Sequence record: OZ035790.1
Strand: one strand, 5' to 3'
Origin: Felixounavirus LF110P4
DNA: 64,000 nucleotides
This document shows positions 27,593-28,623 of this stretch, piece by piece (positions within the stretch are counted from its first letter, which is position 1; each line of letters starts with the position of its first letter). A program made the position numbers and the translations under genes. Under the pieces are notes generated by a model, which was not told the DNA's origin, ran no database searches, and saw only the letters and a program-made list of their open reading frames with translations.

Positions 27593-28033
27593 TTAGAAAG
27601 GTTTTCTACGTTGCTTGTTAATGTTAGCTTTCATAGCAGCTAAATGGTTTTGCTGTTCAATTAGTCGTGAACGTTCTTGATGGCTAAGTACCATAGTGTT
27701 CACATTCTCAATCGCTTGAGTGGCTTGCTTTAAAGCACGACCAATCTTACCAGACATTTTACGTTTTGCAATAGTTGCTTGATGCTTAGGTTCAACCACA
27801 CGATAACCAACACCCATTGAAGCAACCAGATAAATCTTCTCTTCTTTAAGAAGCTTCTCAATAAACTTCTCAAGTCGATTTAAGCGTGTAAGCGCATAAG
27901 CCTTCATTTCATCTTCGTACTTAACAATGTCACCTTGATAAGTTGGCTTCACAATACCTAAGAAGGTGTCCATCTCAGAATGTGATACAGTGTCACCGTA
28001 ACTAAACTTTGCTGCTAATGCTTTTGTATTCAT
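27593..28033 (-). CDS. hypothetical protein (repeat-flanked cassette gene 2)
   Basis: 146 aa, basic C-terminus; start is 2 nt from upstream stop. Confidence 0.5.
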   Translation of the reverse strand: MNTKALAAKFSYGDTVSHSEMDTFLGIVKPTYQGDIVKYEDEMKAYALTRLNRLEKFIEKLLKEEKIYLVASMGVGYRVVEPKHQATIAKRKMSGKIGRALKQATQAIENVNTMVLSHQERSRLIEQQNHLAAMKANINKQRRKPF

Positions 28034-28035
28034 AA

Positions 28036-28623
28036 TTAAACGTTACCTTCTGAAATAACTTCTACAGAAAAACGACCAAAGCGTGGACGCCAATCACCTA
28101 CACCACAAAGGTTGCCAGCATTTTCCAGAACCATCAGAAGTTCCTCTCTGGTGATTTGCTCTTCATCGAACATCAAACCGAACTCTACAGACCAGTCACG
28201 GAAGATTGGGCGGTAGCTCATAACTCGTGCTGTACCAATCTTAACAGACTTAGCATAGATAAAGTCTGGATTCTTAGCAAGTTCTTGTGGGTTTGCTGGA
28301 CAGTTCTTGATAGTCATTGGGAAGACTACATCTGTCAGCATAATGGCTCGGTCAATTACCTTACCAAGTTTGTTAAGTTTTGCACCAGACTTGATACAAG
28401 CCTCAATCATCTCACCGTTCATAACAAAACCTAGCTGCTCATCGTAGTAACAGGAAGTTACTAGTTGGCTTTCTGCTAAGAGCGCATAGTCTTCGTCAGT
28501 CTTTTTACGTTTACTGGACAGAGACTTGTGATATTTTGTCAGAGGGTTTAATGGGTCTGACAACGTATCGTTATGGCTCAAGAAAGGACGAGTACCAGTG
28601 ATTTTGATATTTAACAGTTTCAT
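28036..28623 (-). CDS. hypothetical protein (repeat-flanked cassette gene 1)
   Basis: ATG at 28623 with ggag RBS (track ORF starts at GTG 28638); no recognisable domain. Confidence 0.5.

Follow-up and report, generated by a model that had tools for sequence, protein, structure and literature searches.

A Felixounavirus locus that very probably forms a complete type II VIPR system, with guides predicted to silence an Escherichia coli satellite

Two bioRxiv preprints of 2026 (10.64898/2026.04.26.720920 and 10.64898/2026.04.26.720927) describe VIPR (Viral Interference Programmable Repeat), a second kind of RNA-guided DNA recognition that uses a gapped code and a minimal RAMP protein. This protein has been proposed to be ancestral to CRISPR effectors. 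According to the preprints, a VIPR locus consists of vipr, which encodes the RAMP protein, a vap accessory gene and guide RNAs of ~100 nt (vrRNAs). The vrRNAs are intergenic and flank vipr; each has 9-16 YNNGG tandem repeats and ends in a conserved 3' tail, which in the SUSP1 clade takes the form of a pseudoknot. Each repeat is occupied by one Vipr protomer, which hides GGY and presents NN, and the filament reads double-stranded DNA as NN-x-NN-x (a '1-nt skip'), upon which an R-loop triplex forms and transcription is repressed; protection is enhanced by vap1. The SUSP1 clade is defined by >90% identity to the SUSP1 Vipr, a minimal RAMP with an RRM core, a G-loop and a thumb. The preprints also report that 18 of the 20 assignable guides of this clade are aimed at a satellite phage, that self-targeting does not occur in it and that some satellites carry a vrRNA of their own. 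Expression of the ~100-nt vrRNA, its co-purification with Vipr and repression by the RNP are shown there for SUSP1 and P. fulva only (10.64898/2026.04.26.720920, 10.64898/2026.04.26.720927).

We analysed a stretch of 64,000 nucleotides, hereafter called the window, from Felixounavirus LF110P4 (sequence record OZ035790.1). The window is a segment of a Felixounavirus (Felix O1-like myovirus) genome with ~39% GC, and its gene order agrees almost base for base with that of phage Bas63. A 2-kb query around the locus under study matched 236 phage records, nearly all of them Ounavirinae of Escherichia, Salmonella or Shigella, at ~90-93% identity. We conclude that positions 27183-29063 of the minus strand very probably make up a type II VIPR system that is complete and belongs to the SUSP1 clade, and whose guides would silence a satellite parasitising the phage. 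Read along the minus strand, the order of features is ligase, promoter, two repeat units, a 195-aa ORF, a 146-aa ORF, a terminator, three further repeat units and the promoter of the next gene. The upstream neighbour is an ATP-dependent DNA ligase (29070-30209, minus strand), and directly past its stop codon lies a sigma-70-type promoter (TTGACA-16-TATACT, 29063-29036, minus strand) with 11 of 12 consensus matches, the sequence of which is conserved in phages Bas63, SP116 and pSJ21. The 195-aa ORF, vipr (28036-28623, minus strand), has an ATG start, while the ORF listing extends to a GTG at 28638; the ATG at 28623 is supported because the PDB sequence 36pp_D begins with MKLLNIK. Just 5' of vipr there is a weak promoter-like site (TTTACA-18-TAAAGT, 28639-28668, minus strand, 9 of 12 matches), whose role is uncertain and whose equivalent is annotated as a promoter in the record of phage ASO1B. 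The stop codon of vipr (TAA) and the ATG of vap1 (27593-28033, minus strand; 146 aa ending in NINKQRRKPF) are 2 nt apart, and translational coupling of the two genes is supported by the homologous pairs in 62 distinct distant loci, which overlap by 1-4 nt. An intrinsic terminator (AGCCTCTTCGGAGGCT followed by a T-run; 27581-27566, minus strand) stands between vap1 and the three downstream guide units, and the promoter of the next gene follows at 27167-27139 (minus strand).

The original prediction had described two translationally coupled genes lying between two composite repeat blocks and equipped with their own promoter and terminator. This observation was accurate, since the 64 kb contain period-5 GGT-NN arrays at only five places, every one of them on the strand of the genes, which is far beyond chance, and the five units, the promoter with 11 of 12 matches and the terminator at 27581-27566 were all recovered. 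The locus is also a self-contained accessory module of the early region, with a promoter and a terminator of its own. ORFs were listed for positions 24000-32000 and 9000-23600, and family searches were run on the six products nearest to the locus, namely Vipr, Vap1, three small proteins that are unknowns or an HTH regulator, and the DNA ligase. Further away on the ligase side, a 171-aa ORF (31446-31961, minus strand) lies directly downstream of the DNA polymerase gene; its equivalent is annotated as an HNH homing endonuclease in related phages, and a satellite island of E. coli O157:H7 encodes an HNH_3 + AP2 protein of similar size (174 aa). A Cys-rich ORF of 86 aa (25054-25314, minus strand) is the counterpart of gp32 of Bas63, annotated in the PhageMaP study as Lar-like (restriction alleviation) and conditionally important.

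Searches of Pfam, NCBIfam and PADLOC gave no functional name for the 195-aa or the 146-aa protein, and PHROGs returned only the unnamed families phrog_4652 and phrog_5926. To this extent the two proteins do lack recognisable motifs, as had been stated for them, but the statement fails for fold and for PDB sequences: a fold search assigned Vipr to the Cas7/RAMP fold, and the family profile matched a single entry among the PDB sequences, 36pp, 'SUSP1 Vipr protein'. The 195-aa protein is identical to this protein of solved structure at 190 of 195 positions (97%), and as a minimal RAMP protein with >90% identity to SUSP1 Vipr it falls within the SUSP1 clade. The cryo-EM paper (10.64898/2026.04.26.720927) names residues for GGY recognition and DNA clamping; H17, K33, R39, E71, M72, K82, K88, R138, C173, D177, W178 and R179 are all present at the same positions in the Vipr of the window. 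T175 is also named, and the PDB alignment has V at 175 in both the SUSP1 and the window protein, a mismatch that is a numbering or text discrepancy in the preprint (10.64898/2026.04.26.720927). More than 500 Vipr homologues of equal length were found at 40-50% identity in metagenomes, viral contigs and prophages of Rhodococcus, Streptomyces, Gordonia and Xanthomonadaceae.

Identity of 98.6% to the product of the gene beside vipr in phiSUSP1 shows that the 146-aa protein is Vap1. Its N-terminal half is winged-helix-like and its C-terminal helices are long, and the vap1 gene adjacent to vipr encodes a predicted DNA-binding protein, as in described VIPR loci. A word-index search with Vap1 alone returned Felixounavirus copies only, and the family became visible after the neighbours of distant vipr genes had been collected: in all 62 distinct distant vipr loci the next gene encodes a homologue of the 146-aa protein, of ~155-165 aa, and these homologues share the conserved motif LxSVRGxGYRxVPPxxQ. 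This invariable pairing indicates that vipr and vap are an old, strictly linked pair. Homology and structure searches, which the original prediction had proposed as a check, therefore pointed to no ordinary structural or metabolic family and identified the products as Vipr and Vap1.

The repeat units are composites of ~127 nt, three of them downstream of the gene pair (27183-27529, at 127-nt spacing) and two upstream (28696-28968). All five parse as 11-15 GGY-NN pentamers, or up to 17 with degenerate 5' units included, and each run leads into a 3' tail. As reported for vrRNAs, the YNNGG arrays flank vipr and their tails are pseudoknots, with the exception of the tail of unit D2. GGY is kept, and NN varies between units as well as between related phages. 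All predicted vrRNAs lie on the minus strand. U1 (28852-28968) has ~15-16 units, the NN code CG GA AG TA AT CC GT CG AA AC AC AA AA AG AT and the tail GGGTAGTTAGTCTCAGCTACATTAAAATGAGACTTAC. U2 (28696-28793) has ~11-12 units, which read AA AA GC CA CG AA GC GA AT AA GT, and tail stems GTGG/CCAC and TGGTAG/CTACCA. The 11 units of D1 (27439-27529) read AC GC TA AA CT AG AG GA TT AA GC and precede a pseudoknot tail with stems GTAG/CTAC and AATCGGA/TCCGATT. D2 (27311-27407; 11-12 units) reads GT AC AA TA AG CA CA CA GA AA GT and has a chimeric tail, and D3 (27183-27275; 11 units) reads AT AT GT TT TA AT TA GT AA AG AT, with tail stems AAGG/CCTT and TGGCAG/CTGCCA.

An alignment of 17 distinct tails from the window and related phages supported an H-type pseudoknot of 4 + 8 pairs, in which 89% of cells were paired against 25-41% in slid-partner controls. 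Compensatory changes were present in 9 of the 12 pairs, and the observed score was reached by none of 500 shuffles. The D2 tail (27311-27347) joins an AATCGGA-type 5' half to a TGAGACT-type 3' half, a combination unique among the tails collected; stem 2 of its pseudoknot is broken because the tail is chimeric, which is the mark of a past crossover between guide units. A spacer of ~30-40 nt precedes each guide (for example 28969-29005 and 27530-27565, minus strand) and consists of an 11-bp perfect inverted repeat (ACATCACTTAA...TTAAGTGATGT) or of the palindrome CCTTTTTAAAAGG followed by TCTTTAAGAGGGTCTTTTAAT; these spacers are candidate promoters, processing sites or terminators of the preceding unit. 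A permissive Rfam search of 26500-29500 gave two chance-level matches only.

We scanned all collected loci for phased trinucleotides. In most of the distant ones, period-5 GGY arrays directly adjoin the gene pair, upstream or downstream of it, and with a single exception they lie on the same strand as the genes. These arrays comprise 2-6 units at ~112-130 nt spacing, each ending in GG(C/T)AAGGG, and are built on GGT in low-GC phages and on GGC in high-GC ones. They accompany vipr-vap even at a Vipr identity of no more than 40-50%, in loci that range from actinobacterial prophages to Xanthomonadaceae. As the arrays travel with the gene pair in distant loci, the repeats cannot be read as mere recombination substrates. 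The original prediction had treated them as simple flanks and the upstream ones as a 'structured leader'; they are instead vrRNA guide genes.

To find what the guides might address, the downstream guide block was compared with E. coli genomes by BLAST, which gave no match, and the satellite was reached instead via a phage gene at 13514-14314 (plus strand, 266 aa), just past the tape measure gene. This gene has nucleotide matches of 92-94% over ~70% of its length in E. coli chromosomes, and the matching satellite baseplate gene occurs in 474 of 5426 complete E. coli genomes (~9%). The matches belong to an island of ~12 kb, located between yciI and tonB or inserted in a DUF72 gene beside yecD, which carries genes for a serine recombinase, a tape-measure protein, a baseplate protein, an HNH protein and several unknowns. 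Its tape-measure and baseplate genes are closely related to those of the phage. The island is evidently the satellite targeted by the guides, and it fits the satellite described in 10.64898/2026.04.26.720920.

We scanned four satellite islands for targets with the 1-nt-skip code, using 200 shuffles of unit order per guide as the null. U1 matched at 27 of 30 NN positions (0/200 shuffles) inside the gene for a 184-aa protein in E. coli O157:H7 Rafaela_II, with the skipped base at the codon wobble position. D1 matched at 21/22 positions, 49 nt upstream of a satellite gene encoding 236 aa (0/200 shuffles), and D2 at 20/22, or 22/24 with an extra 5' unit, inside a 109-aa satellite gene, where the skipped base falls on codon position 2 (0/200 shuffles). 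The target of D3 (19/22; 1/200 shuffles) lies 29 nt upstream of the gene for a 184-aa protein in E. coli O111:H21 15A. The best match of U2 in the satellites, 17/22, was at background (22/200 shuffles), and exact gapped-pattern scans of viral and genome collections with U2 gave no match, so that no target was assigned to it. At the same loci, skips of 0, 2 or 3 nt yielded at most 14-20 matches (the 20 being for U1, out of 30) and shuffles at most 17-22. Guides of VIPR systems are expected to match competing mobile elements at 80% or more of NN positions under the 1-nt-skip rule and not to target the phage itself (10.64898/2026.04.26.720920). With NN matches of 86-95%, U1, D1, D2 and D3 have predicted targets in such an element, two of them just upstream of genes and two intragenic. 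Within the 64-kb window we detected no self-target, the best NN match of any guide being at background (15-20).

The satellites contained no Vipr or Vap genes. The satellite of E. coli RL465 has a vrRNA of its own (5835-5925, minus strand, of the fetched locus), made up of ~9 GGY-NN units and a pseudoknot tail of the GTGG/CCAC type followed by an intrinsic terminator. Because it has no Vipr or Vap of its own, this satellite must rely on the Vipr of its helper phage. Compared with the window and the four satellites, its vrRNA gave no convincing target.

The VIPR locus is almost certainly functional, and its mechanism is inferred from the 97-99% identity to SUSP1. The intergenic repeat units would be expressed as vrRNAs of ~100 nt, on which Vipr protomers would polymerise, one per GGYNN, with GGY sequestered and NN exposed, to give a helical filament capped by the 3' pseudoknot. 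This filament is expected to pair with double-stranded DNA as NN-x-NN-x, skipping one base per unit, and to form an R-loop triplex that blocks transcription, and Vap1 would strengthen the silencing. By computation, four of the five guides are addressed to the ~12-kb chromosomal satellite, whose genes would then be silenced. As this satellite has phage-related tape-measure and baseplate genes, the system most likely serves to silence it and so to keep it from hijacking the phage.

A different use of the same machinery is conceivable, in which the guides would regulate the phage's own or host genes as a timing switch rather than act against the satellite. Transcriptional repression by VIPR could serve such regulation, and U2 is without a target in the four satellites scanned. 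We nevertheless judge it very unlikely, given that the best NN matches inside the 64-kb window reach only background (15-20), that the matches of four guides all fall in one satellite and far exceed the nulls, and that no self-targeting is reported for the SUSP1 clade (10.64898/2026.04.26.720920).

We then compared the presence of the module among related phages. DNA and protein searches each found the vipr-vap pair in 117 phage records, with nucleotide identities of at least 90% throughout, whereas the neighbouring ligase was found in 259, which puts the prevalence of vipr-vap at ~45%. The module is therefore not universal, and the presence/absence comparison proposed with the original prediction bears out a module that can be gained or lost by recombination, although this is a secondary property of the locus. 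The DNA of the pair (27593-28623) is 95-99% identical in 107 of the 117 records and the ligase gene (29070-30209) mostly 80-95% identical across its 259 records; the pair is thus far more uniform than the backbone, a contrast that points to strong constraint or to horizontal spread in the recent past. A copy of the vipr-vap segment, 97.4% identical, also occurs in GenBank record GU169904.1 ('Staphylococcus phage SA1', 147 kb), which probably includes Felixounavirus sequence through contamination or mis-assembly.

Genome-wide searches of Bas63 with tblastn and family profiles detected no Vipr and no Vap, and the PhageMaP essentiality data, obtained with Bas63, are therefore uninformative for vipr and vap1. 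At the corresponding position (5331-5553 of the fetched locus), Bas63 still has the promoter, together with two guide units. If everything between the two copies of a 17-nt segment common to the tails of U1 and D2 is deleted from the window, the Bas63 arrangement results: the simulated deletion and Bas63 are identical in 384 of 410 aligned columns, and they differ only in the first guide array and in an expansion of the last array. The expansion, in the last unit of Bas63, is a 30-nt slippage product of GGTTAGGTAT and would disrupt any target register. The Bas63 arrangement is, as judged from this alignment, the expected outcome of a crossover between two guide tails of a window-like genome, and the deletion between the U1 and D2 tails identifies the system's own guide genes as the likely agents of its recombination. 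SP116 likewise had neither vipr nor vap genome-wide, and it retains two orphan units (4200-4480 of the fetched locus), one of which matches the satellite at 25 of 28 NN positions. One orphan unit is kept in pSJ21 (4380-4480 of the fetched locus), which is without vipr, while Suspvirus EP1 has neither the genes nor guide units at the locus.

About half of the Felixounavirus-like genomes are thus without vipr-vap, with 1-2 intact-looking vrRNA genes kept in those examined (Bas63, SP116 and pSJ21). The system appears to be dispensable and to have been lost repeatedly by recombination between its own guide genes, leaving orphans behind. It is tempting to speculate that these orphans are not decaying relics and act as guide-only 'free riders' that load the Vipr of a co-infecting relative in trans, or as sponges that titrate the Vipr of a competitor, a reading that we consider rather doubtful. 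Like such free riders, the satellites' own vrRNAs must use Vipr supplied in trans. Guide-only phage loci receive no mention in the accessible parts of the two preprints (10.64898/2026.04.26.720920, 10.64898/2026.04.26.720927).

The variable presence (117 against 259 records), the deletion-like arrangement in Bas63 and the lack of Pfam or PADLOC matches are also what a generic accessory cassette would produce, with anti-defence or host-takeover genes between repeats that serve as recombination substrates for gain and loss and nothing else. We give this account even less weight than a timing switch, because repeats and gene pair are found together in different phyla and, in all but one distant case, on one strand, because Vipr shares 97% identity with an RNA-guided effector that binds repeats of exactly this kind, and because satellite sequences can be read from the variable dinucleotides of four units. 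The anticipated host-takeover or anti-defence function was right in supposing a role in conflict, but the published work (10.64898/2026.04.26.720920) and the target matches point instead to RNA-guided DNA binding and silencing of a satellite. The strand-biased GGT periodicity between two promoters might suggest that the G-rich arrays act at the level of DNA, as iterons, R-loop or G-quadruplex formers or Chi-like hotspots, and have nothing to do with the two proteins. We give this a negligible probability, since Vipr has been identified, biochemical and structural work on vrRNAs is published, the pseudoknot tails covary and the guides match targets. Among specific candidates, replication-origin iterons, R-loop or G-quadruplex formers and Chi-like or RecA-preferred GT-rich hotspots were dropped after the fold search and the PDB match to Vipr, and a TRAP-like ring substrate (11-12 triplets), T7-type primase sites and terminal-repeat packaging signals were dropped on the same matches.

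As it lies inside the clade of the published work, the VIPR locus of the window is already known, and the guide-only orphans are the only new lead. The present analysis adds five native guides with predicted sites, the chimeric D2 tail, the ~45% prevalence of vipr-vap and the guide-only loci in Vipr-less relatives. It provides a natural and complete example of VIPR in one of the commonest coliphage genera, with four of five guides assignable to satellite sites, and the phage, the satellite (in ~9% of complete E. coli genomes) and the host make up a ready experimental triad.

The closest described system is the type II VIPR of phiSUSP1, which like the window locus is situated downstream of the ligase, has GGY/NN guides with a pseudoknot tail on both sides of the genes and is directed at the same target class, a satellite of E. 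coli whose tape measure and baseplate genes resemble those of phages. Unlike SUSP1, which has one upstream guide, the window phage has two in addition to the three downstream, and it has its own NN codes and target sites, a chimeric D2 tail and a Felixounavirus backbone of ~39% GC. The type II VIPR of a Pseudomonas fulva prophage, as described in 10.64898/2026.04.26.720927, shares the order vipr then vap1, tandem vrRNAs and the R-loop triplex mechanism; it differs in being prophage-borne and in that its guides mostly target lysis-lysogeny regulators of resident prophages. The sampled distant relatives differ from the window locus in a Vipr that is 40-50% identical and in GGC rather than GGT units.

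Compared with the backbone of Class 1 CRISPR-Cas systems, formed by the Cas7 family (Csm3, Cmr4, Csf2, Cas7-11), VIPR has a period of 5 nt in the guide and 3 nt in the target instead of 6 and 6. Its guide is non-contiguous, with the NN positions alone being read, each guide is a separate gene of ~100 nt, and there is no nuclease; Cas1/Cas2, Cas5, Cas6 and Cas11 have no place in the published description of VIPR loci. The guide information in the window sits in dinucleotides interleaved with GGY and not in contiguous spacers, and the repeat search gave 127-nt composite units only, in place of the near-identical direct repeats and unique spacers of a CRISPR array. A lytic phage with a CRISPR-based answer to the same problem is ICP1, which reportedly deploys a complete CRISPR-Cas system of type I-F, capable of both acquisition and DNA cleavage, against the Vibrio PLE satellite. 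VIPR, to our knowledge, has no adaptation module and represses rather than cuts. ICP1 and the VIPR phage are alike in that each is a lytic phage that turns an RNA-guided system against a chromosomal satellite parasitising it.
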